Both the position numbers and the translations under genes were made by a program. Below are positions 13,949 to 42,385 of a stretch of 56,683 nt of DNA, in pieces. This DNA comes from Hadesarchaea archaeon (GTDB lineage Archaea; Hadarchaeota; Hadarchaeia; Hadarchaeales; JAGGTB01). The DNA is taken from positions 1-56,683 of the forward strand of contig JAGGTB010000028.1 of the NCBI GenBank assembly GCA_021163965.1. Direction: 5' to 3'. Under the pieces are notes generated by a model, which had not been told where the DNA came from, did no database searches, and saw only the letters and a program-made list of their open reading frames with translations. Positions within the stretch are counted from its first letter, which is position 1; each line of letters starts with the position of its first letter.

Positions 13949-14161
13949 TTGGGAAGAATTCTCGAAATAAAGGTTGTTCCGAATTCCCGAGTCGAGAAGG
14001 TAATTAAGGAAGAGCCGATAATAGTGAAAGTGAGGGATCCCCCGGAAAAAGGAAAAGCGAACAAAGCCGTCATTAAGCTACTGTCAAAGTATTTCGGCTC
14101 CAAGGTGAGGCTCATCGCGGGGAAAAGGTGCAGGAAGAAACTCGTAGAAATTGTCGAATGA
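13949..14161 (+). CDS. DUF167 / YggU-like (UPF0235) protein
   Basis: 70 aa. LEIKVVPNSRVEKV...VKVRDPPEKGKANKAVIKLLSKYFGSKVRLIAGKRCRKK fits the GKAN-containing DUF167 pattern. Confidence 0.7.
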   Translation: MGRILEIKVVPNSRVEKVIKEEPIIVKVRDPPEKGKANKAVIKLLSKYFGSKVRLIAGKRCRKKLVEIVE

Positions 14162-14176
14162 TGGATCCTCGGTAGA

Positions 14177-14434
14177 GGTGACCTCCTCCCCACGCTTTCG
14201 CACGGGGCTTCCGACTTTTCCTTCCGTTACCCCCACATCGCCTCGCTTCGGGGAACGTTTTGCCGGAAGCCTCTGGGAGCTTCCTGCTTCATCCACCGGA
14301 CTCGATCCCCGACGCGCGGGTCATCGGTTTCTCACAGGCGTTCGGTTCGGGGTGGCCGAAGAAATCGGCATGGAGGGAAATATACGGTTTTCGGCCCTCA
14401 TCCCCGCCCTCACGGAAGGGGACTCCCCGCCGAC
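14177..14434 (-). ncRNA. Unclassified structured RNA candidate, copy 1 (paralogue of 32182-32414)
   Basis: Homologous to a second locus in three collinear blocks separated by hairpin-forming expansions. One stem shows a compensatory change. GNRA-capped hairpins and G-U pairs appear only on the minus strand. A conserved TTTAAC lies just upstream (14435-14443 on the plus strand). Weaker similarity extends to about 14161. Confidence 0.5.
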
Positions 14435-14492
14435 AAAGTTAAAAACTATGGGGTAATCTAAACATTGACTATAAAGTTCAGTTGGTGTTAAC

Positions 14493-25726: not shown

Positions 25727-26683
25727 ATGAAGGGAGTCGTGGTGAATGGTGTGGAGGAAATAGAAAAGTTACAGGGAATCGGGCCGGCAATCGCGGAAAA
25801 GCTTCGTTCTTCCGGTTACGACACGCTTGAGAGCATAGCTGTCGCGACTCCTGTGGAGCTAAGCGAGGCGGCCGAAATCGGGGCAAAAACGGCAATACAG
25901 ATAATAAGAGCCGCTCGGGAGCAGGCGGATATGGGGTATGAGAAGGCGACGGAAATCATGGAGCGGCGCAAGAGTGTTGGTCACATCTCGACGGGAAGCA
26001 ATAATCTCGATGAGGTTCTCGGTGGAGGGGTGGAGACCCAAGCGATAACTGAAATCTTCGGGGAGTTCGGGTCCGGGAAGACCCAACTTGCGCACCAGCT
26101 CAGCGTCAACGTGCAGTTGCCCGAGGAGAAAGGAGGTCTCGGTGGAAAAGTGCTCTACATAGATACGGAGAATACCTTCAGGCCTGAGCGGATAGGTCAA
26201 ATGGCTAGGGCAGTCGGTTTGGACCCTGGGGACGCGCTGGAGAATATATATGTGGCACGAGCTTACACGACCGATCATCAGATGCTCTTGGCCGAAAAGG
26301 CGGGGGAGTTGGTCAAGGAGAATTTTGTGAAACTGATTGTCGTCGATGCGTTGATGTCGCTCTTCCGAACGGAGTACTGTGGTCGCGGGGAGCTTGCGGA
26401 GAGGCAACAGAAGCTCGGAAGACACCTCGCGACGTTGCACAAGCTTGCGGAGTTGCATAACCTAGCGGTTTTTGTGACGAATCACGTACAGTCTAAGCCA
26501 GATGTATTCTTCGGGGATCCAACCCGCCCGGTAGGGGGGCACGTGCTCGGACACTCGGCGACAGCTAGGATATACCTGCGGAAGAGCGAGAAAGGCTCGA
26601 GAGTTGCAAAACTTATAGATCATCCGGCACTACCTCCAGAGAGCGCTAGGTTCTACATTTGCAAGGAAGGGATTCGCGACTAG
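25727..26683 (+). CDS. radA: RadA recombinase, paralogue 1
   Basis: 318 aa. N-terminal HhH domain ([26 protein letters not shown]), Walker [10 protein letters not shown], Walker [17 protein letters not shown] is present, but NHVQSKPD replaces the usual NQV. Confidence 0.92.
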
Positions 26684-31963: not shown

Positions 31964-32181
31964 ATGCCCACGGACTGTTCTTCTTTTAGGCTGGAAAAAA
32001 TAAGAACGGAAATCGAAACGGTCCAATCTTTTTCTTTTTTTGACTCTAGGAAGCATAGCACCGCATTATGGTACCTAAGATTTGAAAAATGTTGAAAGAC
32101 TGGACAAATATTGGGAGCGCATGGTGGGAACATAAAAGACGGAAATCGCTGAAATGTTCTAGATGATCCGTCATCGATAAG

Positions 32182-32414
32182 GGTGACCTCCTCCTCATGC
32201 TTCCGCACGGGGCTTCCGACTTTTTTCCCTGTTACTCCCACATCGCCTCCGCTTCGGGGAGCGTTTTGCCGGGAGCCTCTGGGAGCTCCCTGCTTCATCC
32301 ACCGGACTCGATCCCGCCCCCCTTCGGGCGGTTACGGAGGTCCGATGTCCAGCCTACCCGCGCCGCGCAGGTCATCGGTTTCCCACAGGCGACGGACGGG
32401 GACTTCCCGCCGAC
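32182..32414 (-). ncRNA. Unclassified structured RNA candidate, copy 2 (paralogue of 14177-14434)
   Basis: Same three conserved blocks as copy 1, with a ~48-nt expansion at a different site. Terminal hairpin CCCCGUGC-GGAA-GCAUGAGG on the minus strand. The same TTTAAC lies immediately upstream (32415-32423 on the plus strand). Confidence 0.5.
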
Positions 32415-32465
32415 AAAGTTAAATTATCTCCCGCCATCGACTTCTCTGAAAACGGAGGAGGCGGA

Positions 32466-33787: not shown

Positions 33788-35878
33788 GTGCTTGCGGAAT
33801 ATCCATCGGGGCTTGGGTTGAGCACGAATTTTGACGATATCGTGCGGAAAATTCTGGAGAAAACGGGCTTGGATCGCAACGAACTTATGGCCCGCATACG
33901 CAGGAAACAGGAAGAACTCAGCGGCTTTATTACCCCGGAGGGCGCAGCGGCGATAGTGGCGCGCGAGTTTGGTATAGTCCCAGAGAGGAAGATTCCCGAG
34001 GTTCGGAAGCTGACGATCAGCGACTTGAGCCCGGGAATGTCAAACGTCGATATAGTAGCCCGCGTTGTTCGGGTCTATGAGCCTAGAGAATTCGAGCGCA
34101 GGGATGGGTCTAAAGGACAAGTCGCTAGCGTGATTCTCCAAGATTCCACCGGTCAAATCCGGGGGGTTCTCTGGGACAAGCACGTGTCTCTAATAAAAGA
34201 AAATAAAATCCGGAAAGGGGTGTCGATACGCGTTTGCGGTGCCTATGTGAAGCATCGGCAGAATGGGCCCCCAGAACTCAACCTAGGTCTAAGAAGTTCC
34301 ATAGAGATTAACCCGGATGATCCCCGAGTGGAGGAGCTCCCGGAACTCCCAGAGAGTAAGGCTAAAATAGCCGATCTGAAGCCGGATTTGAGCGATGTCG
34401 ATGTAGTCGGGCGCGTGACCGCGGTCTCTGGGCCCAAAACCTTTGAGCGTCCAGATGGATCCATTGGAAAGGTAGCGAGCGTGATGCTCATAGACGGAAG
34501 CGGTCAAACGCGCGTTTCACTTTGGGATGAGAAAGCCGAGGTAGTTGGAAAAATCAAGCCCGGCGACGCTGTGAAGCTTGAGAACGCGTACGTTAGGAGC
34601 GGATGGCAGGACAAACCAGAACTTCACGTCGGGCGCCGTGGTCGCATCATATTGAACCCCGAGGATCCGGAAGTCAACGAGCTTCCGAAGGTCGAAAGGC
34701 GCCTGTTGAAGGTTGGGGAAATTGAAGTAGATATGCCGACGCTCGATGTCGCGGCGAAAGTGGCTCAGAAGTTTCAGCCCCAAGAATTCAGCCGCGATGA
34801 TGGCTCATCTGGAAAGGTGATGAATGTAATTCTGGCCGACGAAACAGGTTCGATTCGCGCGTCCTTCTGGGATGATATGGTCGACGAGGCCCAGAAGTTA
34901 CGGGTCGGCGATGTTGTTCTACTGAGGAATGCGAGATCGCGCGAGGGCTTGGGTGGACAACCGGAAATCCGGGTTGGTCGGGGCACTGATGTCCAAGTAA
35001 ACCCCGAAGGAATTAGCGTTGGGGAGCCTAGGCCAAGTTTGGTTGAGATCTCCGAACTCGAGCCAGGGATGAATGCATTCCAGGTATTGGGGAGGGTCAT
35101 CGAAGTCTCAGGGTCGAGGGATTTCACAAGGTCTGACGGGAGCAAGGGACGGGTGGCCTCCATGGTTCTGGCAGACCGAACCGGATCCACTAGGGTTTCG
35201 CTGTGGCATGATAAGGCCGGTTTGGTTGACGGGGTCAAGGTTGGCGACGTTATTAGACTGAGCAATTGTTATAGCACGGCGGGGCTCTTCGGCGAAGTTG
35301 AGGTGCACCTCGGAAGGCAGGGCGAGATGGAAGTGAATCCACAAGTCGAAGTGGAGTTGCCACCTGTGGACGTGTTGAAGGCCTTGGCTAGGCCAGAGCA
35401 GGTGGAGATAGGTTCCATCAAAGAGGAGGGAAAGAACGTCCGAGTACGTGGTACCATAGTGAAGGTATTCCAGAGGCGCCCGATATTTGATGTTTGCCCA
35501 GAGTGCGGCAGGAACCTTGGAAGCGTCGATTCGAACCTTCTCTGCGAGGAATGCGGGAAGGTGGTCACTCCGGAGCACAGGGTGGTACTAAGTTTCACGA
35601 TCGACGACGGGACGGGGAACATCCGCGCTATATTGTTTGGGAAAGTTGGGGAGCAACTCCTAGGAATGGGTGCGCAAGAGGTCTTCGAGAAGTTCAGGGG
35701 AGCTTCGAGCTTGTCGGAACTCTATGAAGAGTTCGACCTTCTCGGGCGGGAAATAGTTCTTATCGGGATAACCCGCCGAAACAGGCTATTGGGCGAGCTC
35801 GAGATAGTGGTTCGGGAGGTCGCGATCCCGAATCCCAAGGAGGAAGCCATGAGGTTGTTGGGAAAAATTAAAGCGTAA
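33788..35878 (+). CDS. rpa: Replication protein A (single-stranded DNA-binding), four OB folds plus zinc ribbon
   Basis: 696 aa. Contains four repeats of the pattern V..V....R.F.R.DGS.G.VASV.L.D.TG..R..LWD and a C-terminal CPECGRNLG...CEECG. The start is uncertain (GTG at 33788 or TTG at about 33818). Confidence 0.85.
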
Positions 35879-35879
35879 T

Positions 35880-36854
35880 GTGCAGAAAGTAGAGGTGGAG
35901 ACGGAGTTGTCCGAAGAATTTCGGCGGCTGCTGAGCTTGCCCGGCGTGGGGGAGGCCACAGCTGAGAGGCTCCGGGAAGCGGGATATGAAACAGTCGAGT
36001 CTGTCGCTGTTGCGAGTGTGGATGAGATTTGTGAGGCGGTTGAGATAGGCAAGATGCAAGCCAGGCGCATAATTGAGGCCGCCCGGAAGGCCGCGGAAAT
36101 AGAGGACTTCGTGACGGCTGATAAAGTTCTCGAGAAGAGAAAAAATGTGGGCTGGATCACTACGGGCAGTAGCCAGCTCGATTCCCTCTTTGGTGGGGGG
36201 GTGCAGACTCAAGCGGTTACCGAGGTATTTGGGGAGTTCGGATCTGGGAAGACCCAACTCGCGCACCAGCTCAGCGTCAACGTGCAGTTGCCCGAGGAGG
36301 AAGGGGGACTCAATGGTAAGGCCATCTTCGTTGACACGGAGAACACTTTCAGACCCCGCAGGATAATAAGTATGGCTAAGGCCCGCGGGCTTGATCCGAG
36401 CGAGGCGCTTCGCAATATATTTGTCGCCAGAGCTCGCACTACTGACCGTCAGCTGCTGATAGCCGAAAAGGCCCAGGAAGTGGTGGAGAAGGAGAACGTG
36501 CGCCTGTTGGTGTTTGACACCTTGACTTCACTTTTTAGAGCGGAATTTATAGGAAGGGAGACGCTAGCTGCACGCCAGCAAAAGCTCGCTAGGCATCTCT
36601 TGACCCTCCACAGGATAGCTGATCTTTACAACGTGGCGGTCTTCGTCACAAATCAGGTGCAGGCTAGGCCTGATTTGTTCTTCGGAGATGCTACGCGTCC
36701 CATTGGTGGGCATGTGCTCGGACACTCAGCGACCACGAGGATTTACTTTAGGAAGTCTAGGGGAAATAAGCGCATCGCGCGGGTAGTCGATAGTCCCGAG
36801 TTGCCGGAGGGTGAGTCGGTATTTGTAATCACGGAAGAGGGGATTAGAGACTAA
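35880..36854 (+). CDS. radA: RadA recombinase, paralogue 2
   Basis: 324 aa. The GTG start lies 1 nt after the rpa stop. HhH domain ([26 protein letters not shown]), Walker [10 protein letters not shown], Walker [24 protein letters not shown] replaces the usual ARAYxxxHQ. Confidence 0.9.
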
Positions 36855-36954
36855 CTTGGGTGGAAGGACTTGGTCGCGCGTGACGAAGACGCGGATGGAG
36901 CGATGACTTATTGTTAAAAGGTTGGGACTTCACCGCCGTTGAAGCTTAAGGGGG

Positions 36955-37176
36955 TCAAGTCCCTGTTGGTTTTTTTCTTTTGCCAAGAAGTTTTCTGGCG
37001 AGGGTCTTAAAAGCCTTGGCGCTCGATGAGCTCGCTTTCCTTACCATTATTGGCTCTCCCATCGCGATTGACTTGCGGATTTCTGGGTCCTCCGGGATTT
37101 TTGCAAGTATCGGTAGCTCCAACACCTGGTCACCGAAATCTAACATATCTTCACGCGAAGACATGGTAGGTCGGTT
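36955..37176 (-). pseudogene. C-terminal remnant of a MinD/ParA-family P-loop ATPase
   Basis: ...SREDMLDFGDQVLELPILAKIPEDPEIRKSIAMGEPIMV...SSSAKAFKTLARKLLG aligns by eye with the C-terminal ~65 residues of MinD (E. coli SRGDMLSMEDVLEILRIKLVGVIPED...). No Walker A or N-terminal ~200 aa is found on either side of the adjacent insertion. Confidence 0.6.
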
Positions 37177-38423
37177 TTCAAGCTCCGCGGGAAGCGGAGC
37201 CCCCGGATACCAGGGATTTCCGGGTAGCCTCCGCCGCGCGAGGCGGCCTCATCGTGCACCAGACCATCGGCCTGGTGCAGGGCGGTAAGCCCGCTTCCCG
37301 CGCTTAGCCTACGCCTCGGACTTCCATCGCCTTCATCCGACGCGACACCGCGCGGGATCCCATCTGGAGATGAGCGCAAAGCCTTGAACGCCCCGTAGTC
37401 GAGAACCTTGAGGGCGAACGCGGCGGCGGAGCACTTGTGCACGTCCAAACCGACGAGATGCGAGAGGCACACGCCGAGCTTGGTCGTGTAAGCCTCGCTC
37501 CGGGGCTCCGCGCCGCACTTGTACTCGAGGATCGAGCCGAGCTTGCGGTGGGGGATGCGCTTGACCCTCCGGTTCGCCCCGCGATTCCCCCTGAACTTCG
37601 CCGTGCTGAGCCTGCCGTACACGACCCTAGCGCCGTGGTGCCGGGCGATGTCGCGGATCTTGTTCGCGGTCGCGTGGAGCAGGTTGTCCGTCTTATTCGA
37701 CGAGGCGTGCTGGACCTCGTGGCAGTTTATTCTACCCGTTGCCACTACGCGCTCGCGCTCCGCAACCGCGAAGTCGACGTGGCCGGCGTTAACATCGAGA
37801 GCCATCACGCGCTTCGGCTCTGGCTTCGGTTCCTCCGGAACCTCGACCACGATCCGCACGTCGTGCCCCCCGTCCTCCCGCCGCTTGATCGTCACGGTGT
37901 AGGGCCTGCCCCCGTCGAGCAGGTGGCCGTAGCGCCGGAGGTACTTCCCGGGGATGAAAAGCTCGGGGTAGATCCAGCGCTCGCTCACGCCGGCTCCGGG
38001 CGGCACGTTGATGCGGAGCATTAGCTTACCGTCCACCCGGACGATCCGAGCGTTCAGGTTGCCCTTTTTGGTCCGGTCGCCGCGCGAGACGATCAGCGAG
38101 TCGCGCCGCCTGCGGTACTCCTCGCGCGATATTTCCCCCCGCTCGCGCAGGCGCTGGAGCTTGAGCCCCCCGAAGGTCACGTGAGGGGGCAGATCCTTGA
38201 TCGAGTGGTAGGCATCCTTGACGTAGCGGGAGTTGAGCCCCAGCTGTTCCTGCAGGATCCGCTCGACCTCGGCCTTCGGGATGCCGCGTTGCTTGAGCGT
38301 ATACGCCCGCCGCCTGGCGTTGTCGAAGCGGCGGTAGAGTTCTTCTAGGCGGGCCTCGTCGCGCGGGTCGATGCGCGCGAGCGTGGCGGGGATCGCGAGC
38401 TTGGGCAAAGACTCACCCTCCAA
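37140..38423 (-). CDS. IS200/IS605-type accessory protein (TnpB/OrfB-like), no TnpA nearby
   Basis: 427 aa. RuvC-I-like MALDVNAGHVDFAV, then ...ILEYKCGAEPRSEAYTTKLG... (the YTSK-like motif) and HKCSAAAFALKVL (NAAxNI-like). No CxxC pairs are present. Composition is visibly more GC-rich than the flanks. TTG start with TTATAATTTA about 20 nt upstream. Confidence 0.75.
   Translation of the reverse strand: MEGESLPKLAIPATLARIDPRDEARLEELYRRFDNARRRAYTLKQRGIPKAEVERILQEQLGLNSRYVKDAYHSIKDLPPHVTFGGLKLQRLRERGEISREEYRRRRDSLIVSRGDRTKKGNLNARIVRVDGKLMLRINVPPGAGVSERWIYPELFIPGKYLRRYGHLLDGGRPYTVTIKRREDGGHDVRIVVEVPEEPKPEPKRVMALDVNAGHVDFAVAERERVVATGRINCHEVQHASSNKTDNLLHATANKIRDIARHHGARVVYGRLSTAKFRGNRGANRRVKRIPHRKLGSILEYKCGAEPRSEAYTTKLGVCLSHLVGLDVHKCSAAAFALKVLDYGAFKALRSSPDGIPRGVASDEGDGSPRRRLSAGSGLTALHQADGLVHDEAASRGGGYPEIPGIRGLRFPRSLKTDLPCLRVKIC
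37178..37400 (-). ncRNA. Hairpin-dense 3' tail of the TnpB-like element (omega/reRNA-like candidate)
   Basis: Consecutive perfect stems on the minus strand: GCACCAG-N9-CUGGUGC, CCGCC-N6-GGCGG, CCCGGA-N11-UCCGGG and GCUCCGC-UUCC-GCGGAGC. They overlap the last ~80 low-complexity codons of the ORF and end at the junction with the MinD remnant. Confidence 0.4.
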
Positions 38424-38646
38424 GCGGGTCTCTCTCTGAAGCTAAATTATAAGTCGCTTTGGGGGAGAGGTGCCCGAAAGTAATCCCTCGGTTTTATTAG
38501 GATTTATGAAATTATGTTGGGTCATTGACAACTGTCACTCATCTCCTCTATTTCCTTCCGCCCCATGAAGACCAAGAAAAAGAGGAGTTACAAACAGTTT
38601 AACTTTACCGTCCGGGGGCCCCCTCTGCTGAGATAGATGGCCGGAG

Positions 38647-41097
38647 CTAGTGCCCGGAGGGGTTCACGTTAAAAGTATTTCTCGCACTTTCCGTCTCCCA
38701 GACTTCAGCCACAGTCACCTGCTTGATTCGCGTTGGCTCGTCCTTGTTTTTGTCACGGTAGAATCTGTAGAGGTACCCACTGACTGCCGCCTCGAGGCGC
38801 TCCTCGTGAGTGATTAGGAGCAATTGCTGGACGATTTGTGGAATTCTCTCCCGGAGGACTACCGCAAGTTCCCTGATCCCATCGGCATCGAGATTGTGTG
38901 TTGGTTCATCGAGGACGAGCCAGCTCAGAGCAGGAGCCAAGACTACCGCGAATGCGACCCTCAGGGCCAGGCAGGCGCACGTTCTCTCCCCTCCGCTCGT
39001 TACCCCTTCGACGGGGACCCAGTTCCCAGCGCGGTCTCTCAGTTGCAGGACGTAGTCTCCGCCGCGCTCCCCCCCTTCAACTGAGAGGCGGATATCTACA
39101 TAATCCCCGTAGGGGTATATCTCCTTCCAGAGCTCGCTCATGGTGCCGTTCACGGCTTCGATGAAATGCCGTCTTAGGGAGGTCTGAGTTCGTGCCAGTG
39201 CCACCTGCATTTTCTGAAGCTCTCCGATTGCTCGTTTGAAATATTTGCTCTCTGCGCGGTATTTCTCGAGAGCAGTTTTTTTACTTCTCGCACTTTTTAT
39301 TAGTTTTTCTTTCTCAGTGATGAGCGTACCCTTGTTGGAGATTTGTGTTTTCAGCCGCTCCTGTGCACGGATCAAGCGGTCGTATTTTTCCCTGAGATTC
39401 TTCGCCTCCTCTTCATCGTACTTCTCTTGCATGCTCCAGAGGTCCTTCTGAATTCGGAAGTGTTTCGCCATTTTTCGATCGATTTCTTCCCTTACCCGAT
39501 CCAAATCTTGGCGAAGGGTAAACTTCTGCCGTAGGTTATTCACTCGCTCTCTCTCGCTTTCGACCCTTTCGCGCAGGTCTTTGACCTTCAGTTGGATTTC
39601 TCCCACGACTTTTCTGAGATTTTCGAGCCTCAGCCTCGATTCGCGCAACGTTTCTTCCACGCGCGATCGTTCTAGCTCTAGCTCCTCCAGCTTCCCAGCC
39701 TCCACCTGTAGAAGGTCCGCGCGTTTGCAGACTTCGGTTACTCTTTGGAGTTCAGCATCTAACTCGGTTCTTCTTGTCTCTAGATCTAAGATCCTTTCTT
39801 GGTACTCCTTGAGTTTCCTCTCCCGCTGTAGTAATAGAGCCCGCTTTTTCTCATCCCCCAGTGGGCTCTCGCATACTGGACAAGTAGATCCAGCCATCCT
39901 TAACTCTTCCAGCGCTTGCTTGAGGTCCTCAACTTTGGTACGCAGAGCTATTACTTCGTTTTGAGTATTCTGTTGCATCGTCTGCAGTCTTTCTAGGCGT
40001 TTTTTCAGTTTTGGGAGCTTCAGCTCGTCTAGTTCTTTCTTCGACTTTCGTGCCCGCTGGATGTCTGAGGAGATTTCGTTGAGACGCTTTTGGTTCATTT
40101 GGATCTCCGCCTCAAGCCCGCTGATCTCCGAATTCCTCGCGGAGAGCTCGGAACTCAAGGCATCGAACTCCTGGGCAACGTTTTCGTAGTTCCTCTGGGC
40201 ATTTTCCATCTCCCGCTCGATGTCCGCCAGGCTCCTTCCCGCGATCGCGCCAAGTTTTCCCGTTATTTCTTTTGCTTGGGATCTCAGTGCACTGAGTTCC
40301 CCTCTCAACTCCCTAGATGTCTTATCTAGGCGAGCCAGTTCCTCCTGCAATCTCTGCATTTTTTCGAGCTCCTTTTTGTTCGACTCGAGCTCACGACAAA
40401 CGTTATTGAGTTCCTTTTGGTCCTCCATTCTCGATTTTCTCAGCTCCTCCAGCTCCTGTTCCAAAATTGGGAGCGAAGCAATCGCCTCATCCTGCTCAAG
40501 TTCGCCAATAAGTTGCTCGCGGTCCCTTGTCAGGTCTCGGATTCTGTTTATGAGAGTGCTCATATTCTTGCGCGCGAGTTCCAGTTTGTTGATGCCGAGG
40601 AGTTCATCCGTTTTTCTCATCCGCTCGCCCCGCCTGAGGTTCAAGAAGTAATCCAGTCGATTTTGCTCTGAGTACACGGCGCGCTCGAAAAGGTCATAGT
40701 CTAATTTCAAGAGGGAGCAGACGAGCTCGGTGACTCTGCTCGAGTGAGGTCCCTCTAGAAGTCTCCCGCCCTCTTCCTCCCTGATTTCGGAGAAGGTAGT
40801 TCCCTTTCCGCGTTCTATCACGCGCCTTACGTAGTACCTCGCTCCGTTTGGAGCGGTGAAGGAGACCTCGACCTCGGCAGATTCTGCAGGCTTCGGGCGA
40901 TTTCTTATAAGGTCGTCGAGTTTGATCGTGCGGTTCTGCACGGCCGGAATGGTTCCGAATAGGGCGTAGGTTATCGCATCTAGCACGGCACTTTTTCCAC
41001 TCCCCATGATTCCTATGAGTACGTTTGTTCCGTCTCCAAATCTAAGCTCGGTTTTCTCATGGGATTTCCAGTTCCTAAGCCTCACGCGAGTTATCAT
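38647..41097 (-). CDS. rad50: Rad50 ATPase
   Basis: N-terminal Walker A (GIMGSGKSAVLDAI), a long coiled coil with the zinc hook CPVC (GSTCPVCESPLG), the signature SGGE and Walker B LVLDEPT. Start set at the ATG at 41097 (MITRVRLRNWKSH), overlapping the mre11 stop. Confidence 0.93.
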   Translation of the reverse strand: MITRVRLRNWKSHEKTELRFGDGTNVLIGIMGSGKSAVLDAITYALFGTIPAVQNRTIKLDDLIRNRPKPAESAEVEVSFTAPNGARYYVRRVIERGKGTTFSEIREEEGGRLLEGPHSSRVTELVCSLLKLDYDLFERAVYSEQNRLDYFLNLRRGERMRKTDELLGINKLELARKNMSTLINRIRDLTRDREQLIGELEQDEAIASLPILEQELEELRKSRMEDQKELNNVCRELESNKKELEKMQRLQEELARLDKTSRELRGELSALRSQAKEITGKLGAIAGRSLADIEREMENAQRNYENVAQEFDALSSELSARNSEISGLEAEIQMNQKRLNEISSDIQRARKSKKELDELKLPKLKKRLERLQTMQQNTQNEVIALRTKVEDLKQALEELRMAGSTCPVCESPLGDEKKRALLLQRERKLKEYQERILDLETRRTELDAELQRVTEVCKRADLLQVEAGKLEELELERSRVEETLRESRLRLENLRKVVGEIQLKVKDLRERVESERERVNNLRQKFTLRQDLDRVREEIDRKMAKHFRIQKDLWSMQEKYDEEEAKNLREKYDRLIRAQERLKTQISNKGTLITEKEKLIKSARSKKTALEKYRAESKYFKRAIGELQKMQVALARTQTSLRRHFIEAVNGTMSELWKEIYPYGDYVDIRLSVEGGERGGDYVLQLRDRAGNWVPVEGVTSGGERTCACLALRVAFAVVLAPALSWLVLDEPTHNLDADGIRELAVVLRERIPQIVQQLLLITHEERLEAAVSGYLYRFYRDKNKDEPTRIKQVTVAEVWETESARNTFNVNPSGH

Positions 41098-42385
41098 TTT
41101 CCTTCCCCTCGGGCACATATCCGGAGAGCTTTTTGACGATCTCTACGACGACGCTCATCGCATCATCGATTTTGTTCTCGGTGAGGAGTCCGTATATTGC
41201 CCTGGCATCGAACAATTGTTCGTACCCTATTTCAGCTAGGTTGGAGTCTAACAGCTCCATGGCCATATCCTCGAGCGACATTTGTTGCCCCCGGAGGTCG
41301 CGCAGAAACTTTATCTTTGCTTCTAAACCGGGGGAGGTTAGCTCACCCTTGCTAATACTTAGTATCGCCTTGCCTTGAAACTCCTCTTCGAGCATCCTCG
41401 TGTCGAGCTCGCTACGGGAGGCTCTTTTTGCGAGAGTTCCCCGCAACCTGAAGCGGATTATGGGAGCCTTAGCGGGGTTTCTCCTAGGCTTCTTCAGTAG
41501 ATCCCGCGTTCTGGATCGTATCCAATCGTAGATCTCCGGGATTTCGACCCCGTTGAAGCTCTTCTCCTCGTAATAGAAATCCCGCGGGGACCTGAGTTCT
41601 ACGAATTCGTAGCTCACTCCCCCGTTCATCTTTATCAAGTAGAACCCCTTTGCTAGTTTGGATTCTATCGGCAACAATTGGGTTCGGATGGTGCTACCCG
41701 GAAACAGCAGAGGTCTCCCGTGGATGCTGCTTTCGGCGTGGTAATGCATGTGGCCACACACGTAGAGATCAAACCCTGGGGGAAGGTCTGCAACGTCTAT
41801 CGTCGGACGCTCTTCCTCGGAGAACCTGTAGCTACCGAGCGATTGGTGTAGCATTAGGATGTTGATCGAGTCGCTAACCGGTTTGGGGTTCCACGTGTTG
41901 AGGACGTCTCGGGCGTAGCGCTCGGGGACGTTACTCATGCCGTGGATTGCCACCCTCCCGATTGGGGTCTCCAAGATAACCGCGTTGTGGTGGAGGTGTA
42001 TCAACAGCCCCGCGGATTCCAGCGCTTGGATGGGGTTCACAAGCCCCGCGCTACGTCTTTCGTGATTTCCATGTAGCGCAATCACAGGAATTCCACGAAA
42101 TACTAGGGGGGAAATATCATCGGGTTTTTTGTCGATAGTGCCAGCGAGTTTCACCTCTCCCCCGTCCGTAGCCAGCGGCAGGGAGAGGATTCGCATGGCC
42201 TTTGCCCACATCTCTTGGCGGGGGATCCGGAACTCGAAGATATCCCCCGGGACTAAGATGAGTTGGGCACCGAGCTGAATGGCACGCTCGAAAGCCTCAC
42301 GCGCTTGATCGAATGAGTCCTCCTCCCGCTCCGTCCCCCATTTCGCTCCTAGATGCAGATCTGAAATAGCGGCTATTTTCAACAA
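41075..42385 (-). CDS. mre11: Mre11 nuclease
   Basis: Phosphoesterase motifs ISDLHLG, VPGDIFE, GNHE, MLHQ and CGHMH. Directly upstream of rad50. Confidence 0.93.
   Translation of the reverse strand: MLKIAAISDLHLGAKWGTEREEDSFDQAREAFERAIQLGAQLILVPGDIFEFRIPRQEMWAKAMRILSLPLATDGGEVKLAGTIDKKPDDISPLVFRGIPVIALHGNHERRSAGLVNPIQALESAGLLIHLHHNAVILETPIGRVAIHGMSNVPERYARDVLNTWNPKPVSDSINILMLHQSLGSYRFSEEERPTIDVADLPPGFDLYVCGHMHYHAESSIHGRPLLFPGSTIRTQLLPIESKLAKGFYLIKMNGGVSYEFVELRSPRDFYYEEKSFNGVEIPEIYDWIRSRTRDLLKKPRRNPAKAPIIRFRLRGTLAKRASRSELDTRMLEEEFQGKAILSISKGELTSPGLEAKIKFLRDLRGQQMSLEDMAMELLDSNLAEIGYEQLFDARAIYGLLTENKIDDAMSVVVEIVKKLSGYVPEGKENDNSREA

Follow-up and report, generated by a model that had tools for sequence, protein, structure and literature searches.

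We describe here a GC-rich tnpB gene, and the mobile element that carries it, in a 56,683-nucleotide stretch of DNA from a Hadesarchaea archaeon (contig JAGGTB010000028.1 of assembly GCA_021163965.1; this whole stretch is referred to below as the window). In our assessment, this is likely a horizontally acquired, transposase-less element of the IS607 family, encoding a TnpB nuclease that is devoid of a zinc finger and that has a doubly rearranged RuvC site. The protein falls within known kinds, being an IS607-associated TnpB with a His-type RuvC-III motif, no zinc finger, and a relocated Glu; to our knowledge, neither a TnpB family that combines the two rearrangements nor the omega-RNA of this family has been characterised experimentally. 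The host assembly (Hadarchaeota archaeon) comprises 780 kb in 56 contigs, is 85.6% complete, and has a GC content of 0.536. An earlier note on this DNA, made by eye from the letters and a list of open reading frames (ORFs), had pointed to the same gene as TnpB/OrfB-like, and the motifs that it quoted (ALDVNAGHVDF, ARVVYGRLS, AYTTK, and LDVHKCSAAAFALKV) are all found in the ORF. The coordinates of all features are collected in Table 1.

The assignment of the protein to the TnpB family is supported by its predicted structure. An AlphaFold (AF2) model built on 24 family members gave a predicted local distance difference test (pLDDT) score of 72, with residues ~6–350 modelled confidently and the tail (residues 353–427) scoring below 50. 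The folded core over residues ~6–350 of this model is composed of WED, REC, and RuvC domains, and Foldseek returned AsCas12f as its best match (prob 1.00, E 2.4e-10), with Cas12k and the TnpBs of ISFba1 and ISDra2 ranking next. Structural alignment with VIA-align gave Z-scores of 16.7 to AsCas12f (303 residues aligned, root-mean-square deviation (rmsd) 10.2), 11.9 to ISDra2 TnpB (274 residues aligned, rmsd 10.9), and 11.3 to Fanzor2, as well as about 13 for the RuvC domain alone against IscB/IsrB. By both methods, the model has the bilobed WED-REC-RuvC fold of the TnpB/Cas12 (OMEGA) superfamily, and the comparison to the ISDra2 TnpB structure that the earlier note had proposed thus reveals a shared fold.

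Profile searches gave a more divided answer to the same question, with TnpB homology being supported by profile–profile alignment (hhalign) to a canonical TnpB from contig C33 of the same genome, at 95% probability, but not by the family databases. That is, no TnpB family match was found in the local Pfam-A, where only SHOCT and GvpG matched below threshold on residues 88–111, the TnpB matches in NCBIfam were weak and all sub-threshold, and a profile search against PDB sequences returned nothing meaningful, including no sequence-level similarity to a solved Fanzor or TnpB. We note that the SHOCT-like match (window ~38091–38162) falls on GEISREEYRRRRDSL and scores 22.4 bits (cut-off 27), and that this segment is conserved throughout the wider clade (G.IS.EE..RR.S); it is presumably part of the REC/WED RNA-binding surface.

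A family search at E ≤ 1e-3 yielded 310 full-length homologues of the tnpB product, with identities ranging from 45 to 100% and with many at 45–80% over 99% of the length. Their hosts are Hadarchaeota, Asgard lineages, Hydrothermarchaeales, Alkanophagales, ANME-1, Archaeoglobaceae, Bathyarchaeia, and a few thermophilic bacteria, with more distant relatives (25–35% identity) in Aquificae, Caldanaerobacter, Carboxydothermus, and others; no family members were found in viral contigs. Two of the related loci (L014 and L025) come from metagenome-assembled genomes of Hadesarchaea/Hadarchaeota, and their coordinates match those of genomes placed in the same order as the host.

The alignment to the canonical TnpB from contig C33 places each position of the catalytic site. 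D210 aligns with the RuvC-I Asp of GIDVG, G270 aligns with the Glu of AVENL, such that there is no Glu at the canonical RuvC-II position on strand beta-4, and H329 aligns with the second, catalytic Asp of DRD, with D327 at the first, such that the RuvC-III Asp (D-x-N-A-A) is also missing. E310, in turn, aligns with the Pro of DPxxTS: the segment E310-A-Y-T-T-K-L-G317 is aligned to D-P-R-G-T-S-Q-E-G, and E310-AYTTKL-G317 reproduces exactly the ExxxxxxC register of the alternative Glu (E_alt), which Yoon et al. place six residues ahead of the first Cys of the zinc finger (PMC10711439); in the window protein, the spot where that Cys would stand is seven residues after E310. The positions D210, G270 (VVxGKL), S309-E310 (SEAYTTK), and G325-L-D327-V-H329-K are invariant in the family. 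Taken together, the alignments indicate that the Glu of RuvC-II has been relocated from beta-4 (G270) to beta-5 (E310), and that the RuvC-III Asp has been replaced by H329. The loss of both acidic residues from their canonical positions, which the earlier note had suspected, is thus borne out by profile–profile alignment, as is the missing zinc ribbon: the protein is free of CxxC pairs, as are 127 of its 129 close homologues, and the gap from YTTK to GLDVHK is only ~12 residues. The alternative allowed for in that note, of a divergent archaeal OrfB subfamily with catalytic residues misaligned by eye, stands in its first half, since these are family-wide traits of a subfamily, but not in its second, since hhalign confirms the positions of the motifs.

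To place these residues in a broader context, we took a census of residue states over 200 full-length relatives, 129 of which form the close family. The combination D/G/E/D/H is found in 128 of the 200, and D/E/P(A)/x/H in about 60, with essentially no mixed states; Gly270 is paired with Glu310 in 129 of the 200. This strict coupling argues for relocation of the catalytic residue rather than for inactivation, which would not predict it. The distant relatives at 25–35% identity also lack CxxC and have the His, while keeping the canonical Glu (GxVxExL) together with NPAYTS and a motif H.AAA.VIARRG, such that H329 is common to the wider zinc-finger-less clade whereas D327 is fixed only in the family with the relocated Glu. 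On a FastTree phylogeny of the core region from the wider set of relatives, the state of the Glu position can be accounted for by just two changes.

Both rearrangements have been described separately. Clades with Gly in place of the RuvC-II Glu and a compensating Glu on beta-5 are known (Altae-Tran et al. 2023, PNAS; PMC10691335), as is a clade, RIIIr-4, which has His in place of the RuvC-III Asp and is devoid of the C4 zinc finger, and such rearranged TnpBs have been predicted to be active, as argued from conservation (PMC10691335). The window protein displays the RIIIr-4 pattern, with RuvC-III His, no C4 zinc finger, and hosts that are commonly archaea and thermophiles, and the RIIIr-4 description also fits the 25–35% identical relatives found here. 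It differs from RIIIr-4, which we compare by its published description, in having also lost the RuvC-II Glu (to Gly) and gained the beta-5 Glu, in the fixed Asp that stands two residues ahead of the His, and in lacking an RHH/MazE partner. With the E_alt TnpBs and Fanzors (RIIr-5, PMC10691335; pro-Fanzor IS607 TnpBs, PMC10711439), it shares the beta-4 Gly, the compensating Glu two residues before the Y of YTS, and the link to an IS607 serine transposase; these proteins, however, keep a CxxC...CxxC zinc finger and the RuvC-III Asp, of which the window protein has neither. Pro-Fanzors furthermore have DPG at RuvC-I, where the window protein has DVN (LDVNAG), placing it outside the definition of a pro-Fanzor. 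The ISDra2 and ISFba1 TnpBs (PDB 8EXA, 8H1J, and 8IAZ) share the WED-REC-RuvC architecture (Z 11.6–11.9 over ~270–283 residues), but belong to IS200/IS605 (Y1) elements and have a D-E-D triad and a zinc finger, whereas the window element is of the IS607 type.

Does the rearranged site still cleave DNA? His can be a catalytic ligand in nucleases with the RNase H fold, as in the DEDH tetrad of Argonaute PIWI domains, and from the sequence evidence we consider it rather more probable that the site cuts DNA than that it does not. The opposite possibility, in line with the TldR-type repressor suggested in the earlier note, is that of a nuclease-dead, RNA-guided DNA binder (TldR-like or Cas12k/m-like), acting as a repressor or recruiter and keeping its omega-RNA. 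Both canonical RuvC-II/III acidic residues are replaced, the zinc finger is lost, and no transposase is found in the assembly, all as would be expected of such a protein, and TldRs likewise lack the canonical catalytic residues. However, the replacements are not arbitrary, but are the specific, conserved ones that have been published as rearrangements, with E310 in the E_alt register, the His pattern of RIIIr-4, and the strict coupling of Gly270 to Glu310. In addition, TldRs are immobile, are constantly found beside one particular host gene (fliC, opp), and have guides directed at its promoter, none of which holds for the window family: as set out below, this is a bounded mobile element with an IS607 tnpA in its relatives, different flanks at every locus, no conserved neighbour gene, guides with no second genomic target, and a patchy, multi-copy distribution that includes mini-elements. 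We therefore hold a dead binder to be decidedly unlikely.

A further reading goes beyond the known kinds, namely that the family embodies an uncharacterised active-site solution, in which a zinc-finger-less core of ~345 residues uses D210, E310 (on beta-5), and D327-x-H329, bringing together two rearrangements so far described separately. We regard this as possible but doubtful. If true, the chemistry might differ from that of the D-E-D TnpBs, for example in metal preference, in nicking, or in an absence of collateral cleavage, and the enzyme would work at hydrothermal temperatures with an omega-RNA of ~250 nt that lies outside Rfam. More generally, catalytic residues that seem to be missing from a TnpB need not mean a dead, repurposed protein, and a compact family from thermophiles, zinc-finger-less and with a covarying RNA scaffold, is a reasonable candidate for studying how RuvC sites are rebuilt in TnpB/Cas12.

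The second line of evidence for the likely IS607-type TnpB element comes from an RNA that takes in the 3' part of tnpB. In an alignment of 25 homologous loci, the RNAalifold consensus has 58 pairs, 45 of which show compensatory double changes; 95.9% of cells are paired on the consensus, compared to 36–46% when the partners are slid by 1–3 columns, and none of 500 shuffles matched this. In the window itself, the 296-nt 3' region (37105–37400) folds better than shuffled sequences (z –4.86), with its helices intact. The RNA overlaps the end of the ORF, and the coding signal changes accordingly along the gene. The folded core is under purifying selection, with identities of 0.635/0.742/0.361 at the three codon positions, while those of the tail are flat (0.634/0.649/0.557), and the synonymous share of codon differences falls from 44% in the core to 21.5% in the tail. 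Translation of the last ~82 codons yields a peptide of low complexity, which is disordered in the AF2 model. Three copies from Borrarchaeum have their stop codon at an earlier point, and there the RNA motif (GAAGATATG...GACCWGG) runs on past it. A frameshift or pseudogene origin of this odd C-terminal tail was considered and rejected, as conservation extends to both the tail and its stop codon, and the overlapping RNA explains the oddity.

Conservation ends sharply 15–17 nt past the stop codon, at GACCWGG, in 25 of 25 loci, and each locus differs beyond this point. A search of Rfam with the right-end RNA gave no family. Because a structured, covarying RNA ends at an invariant right end with a variable flank beyond it, we read it as the omega-RNA, or right-end element RNA (reRNA), of TnpB, with the guide being copied from the flank; the protein would then be accompanied by the structured 3' guide-RNA scaffold that is typical of the TnpB/Cas12 superfamily. 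In the ISDra2 and ISFba1 elements, the scaffold likewise occupies the 3' part of the gene and the right end of the element, overlapping the ORF, although that of the window, at about 230–255 nt, lies mostly inside the ORF. Transcription past the GACCAGG right end would append a guide copied from the flanking DNA, for which 37105–37124 is the putative guide portion, and the TnpB/omega-RNA complex would recognise an empty or excised site next to the left-flank motif. Cleavage of this empty site would favour retention of the element, as in known TnpBs. The flank-derived guides of the three copies in this genome have no second match in it, and this, together with the variable flanks, fits selfish homing or retention rather than a domesticated repressor.

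The bounds of the element are set by similarity to a gene-less mini-copy on contig C25, which starts at ~38546 and ends at 37125, and by the rise in GC content over the same span. In this mini-copy, ~100 bp matching 38445–38546 are fused directly to 254 bp matching 37125–37378; a second mini-copy, on contig C5, is also gene-less and is further deleted, and both are 6–12% diverged from the window element. With their left end and its TATA-like box joined directly to the omega-RNA and right end, the two mini-copies resemble the PATE/MITE-like, gene-less derivatives of TnpB transposons, except that the parent here is of the IS607 type rather than IS200/IS605. They number only two in this genome, compared to dozens for an unrelated mini-element family. 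The check on copy number proposed in the earlier note, performed with nhmmer and the RNA alignment, found exactly these three loci (the tnpB copy, C25, and C5) in the genome. We located the left-end motif by eye and by pattern; it heads solo copies at at least 12 other loci and is also present in both mini-copies, and BLAST of the left end against the related loci matched only the in-genome copy. A genome-wide pattern search for this motif was rejected as a copy counter, because it finds mostly Shine-Dalgarno-like GGAGGTGA sites. We note in this connection a 16-mer, GAGGTGAGAAACAGTC (C25:1115–1130), which is identical to the start of the left end of the C5 mini-copy. On C25 it is located 64 bp beyond the mini-copy, on the downstream side and directly ahead of an ATG, and it may represent either a solo remnant of a left end or only a Shine-Dalgarno-like coincidence.

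The link to IS607 is provided by the relatives. In four related loci (L016, L018, L020, and L008), the left-end motif lies ~55 nt upstream of the gene that precedes tnpB, and this gene encodes a serine transposase of the IS607 family (NF033518 score 202.8 bits, cut-off 110; Resolvase and HTH_17 domains). This tnpA is intact in the first three of these loci and frameshifted in L008, with only remnants in other loci, and it corresponds to the serine TnpA (MerR-like helix-turn-helix and resolvase domains) that defines the IS607 family and that the window element lacks. IS607 elements have a GG dinucleotide at both recombination ends. In this family, all 25 right ends close with CCWGG, and left ends open with GGWGG, which in the window copy reads GGAGA; these are candidate GG ends. 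Boxes equivalent to the TATA-like boxes of the left-end interior (TATAAATC, TATAACC, and CTTAAA) occur at equal distances from the left-end motif in related loci, and the boxes in the window are the presumed archaeal promoter or promoters from which tnpB and the omega-RNA would be transcribed. Of 41 genomes in the order of the host, only 8 carry any match to the element family, with one genome having 11, mostly right-end-only fragments; the distribution is patchy, in the manner of a mobile element, and the flanks differ at each locus, with no conserved neighbouring gene.

The composition of the gene is equally foreign to its surroundings. GC content is 0.66–0.68 over the tnpB ORF compared to 0.50–0.56 on its flanks, as the earlier note had remarked, and GC at third codon positions (GC3) is 0.89 in the folded core of tnpB, compared to 0.61–0.65 in the neighbouring genes for the RPA-like protein, radA, rad50, and mre11. 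The recent acquisition that was proposed on these grounds is therefore backed by both measures. The true start of tnpB is probably the second TTG, at 38408, giving a protein of 422 aa, because MPKLAIP then matches the N-termini of homologues and a 422-aa database protein (P0002), and GGAGGGTGA lies just upstream.

Several points temper the reading as a functional nuclease and an intact element. The clustering in space of D210, E310, D327, and H329 is a prediction, made from the register of these residues in the sequence and from models in the literature. A search for a target-adjacent motif (TAM) gave none: on the upstream side of the left end, nothing beyond GGWGG is conserved, and the left flank in the window is rearranged. 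In the left-end core of the window copy, GGAGA stands in place of GGAGG, and one base of the right-end stem is mismatched (TAGA in place of TAGG), which suggests some decay of the ends. Finally, in agreement with the earlier note, which saw no Y1 or serine recombinase gene nearby, neither Y1 (PF01797) nor resolvase-domain (PF00239) transposase genes were found anywhere in the 780-kb assembly (85.6% complete), and the copy is therefore non-autonomous and cannot currently move by itself.

Taking these points into account, the window copy may well be stranded, and it might even be an inert relic of a family that works elsewhere, with an intact ORF that has simply not yet decayed. The lack of a tnpA of either class, the G-to-A change at the left end, and the stem mismatch at the right end would all be consistent with this, as would the loss of the N-terminal two thirds of the adjacent minD gene, which points to a rearrangement at the left end, and the 6–12% divergence of the mini-copies, which implies that mobilisation was not very recent. 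However, the ORF is uninterrupted across its 427 codons, where several homologous loci carry frameshifts or stops, the catalytic and RNA-binding motifs are all kept, and the RNA helices are intact, while a transposase could have been missed in an assembly of this completeness. We thus consider an inert relic to be unlikely, and a transposase-less IS607-family element with a zinc-finger-less, rearranged TnpB remains our preferred reading.

Table 1. Features of the element and its flanks, in window coordinates.
Feature	Position	Strand	Basis or detail
Whole non-autonomous IS607-family element	37125–38548	–	Left end, tnpB, omega-RNA/right end, without tnpA
Left-end terminal motif GAGGAGATGAGTGACAGT	38531–38548	–	Family consensus GGAGG-N5-8-AACAGT
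Left-end interior	38444–38508	–	TATA-like boxes CATAAATC (38501–38508) and CTTATAATTT (38444–38453)
tnpB ORF, 427 aa from TTG	37140–38423	–	ORF list and translation
D210, RuvC-I Asp (ALDVNAGH)	37794–37796	–	Invariant in alignments A1 and A2
G270, Gly at canonical RuvC-II Glu position (VVYGRL)	37614–37616	–	hhalign; family-invariant
E310, relocated ("alternative") Glu in SEAYTTK, beta-5	37494–37496	–	Family-invariant
D327-V-H329, His at catalytic RuvC-III Asp	37437–37445	–	hhalign
Omega-RNA (reRNA) scaffold, as read here	37125–37378	–	Codons ~346–427 and 15 nt past the stop; covariation
Right-end terminus GACCAGG	37125–37131	–	Invariant GACCWGG in 25 loci
Putative guide flank TGTTGGAGCTACCGATACTT	37105–37124	–	Directly 3' of the right end
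minD-like C-terminal ~57 codons, truncated at the right end of the element	36955–37124	–	TIGR01969, 183–236 of 251

At its right end, the element abuts the minD-like remnant, and the listed 69-aa ORF at 36955–37164 (–) is a chimera, of which the start and first 12 codons come from the element and the remainder from minD. In a relative (G011), a complete MinD of 264 aa is found near radA. In the window, the N-terminal two thirds of minD were not found beyond the left end, where there is only ~100 bp before the rad50 stop, and a deletion or rearrangement must therefore have occurred with or after the insertion. The relatives, being too diverged and having other gene orders, yielded no empty insertion site. 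The element thus accounts for the GC-rich island, the truncated minD, and the two orphan structured-RNA loci in the genome. Several further MinD/ParA-like genes and fragments are present in the genome.

The surrounding region (33788–42385) is a recombination and repair cluster, with genes for an RPA-like protein and RadA, followed by convergent rad50-mre11. The RPA-like protein has 696 aa, with four OB-fold repeats and with a cluster of Cys residues at its C-terminus, and a second radA paralogue, with 62% identity to the first, lies at 25760–26680; gene order around radA varies among relatives.

The TnpB from contig C33 that served as the reference for our alignments is encoded by the only other tnpB in the genome (C33:5853–7061 (–), locus L095:1273–2481; NF040570, 268 bits). 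It has canonical D, E, and DRD motifs, yet its zinc finger is also missing (TSQEGDQSLDRD, with no CxxC between YTS and DRD), and its C-terminal ~60 residues resemble the read-through of a GC-rich RNA. Another, abundant family of mini-elements is represented in the window at 14161–14445 and 32171–32423, and elsewhere in the genome at dozens of sites spread over more than 25 further contigs, with BLAST revealing copies or fragments on most contigs; it is unrelated to the right-end RNA (no nhmmer match), and one of its copies lies beside the C33 tnpB.

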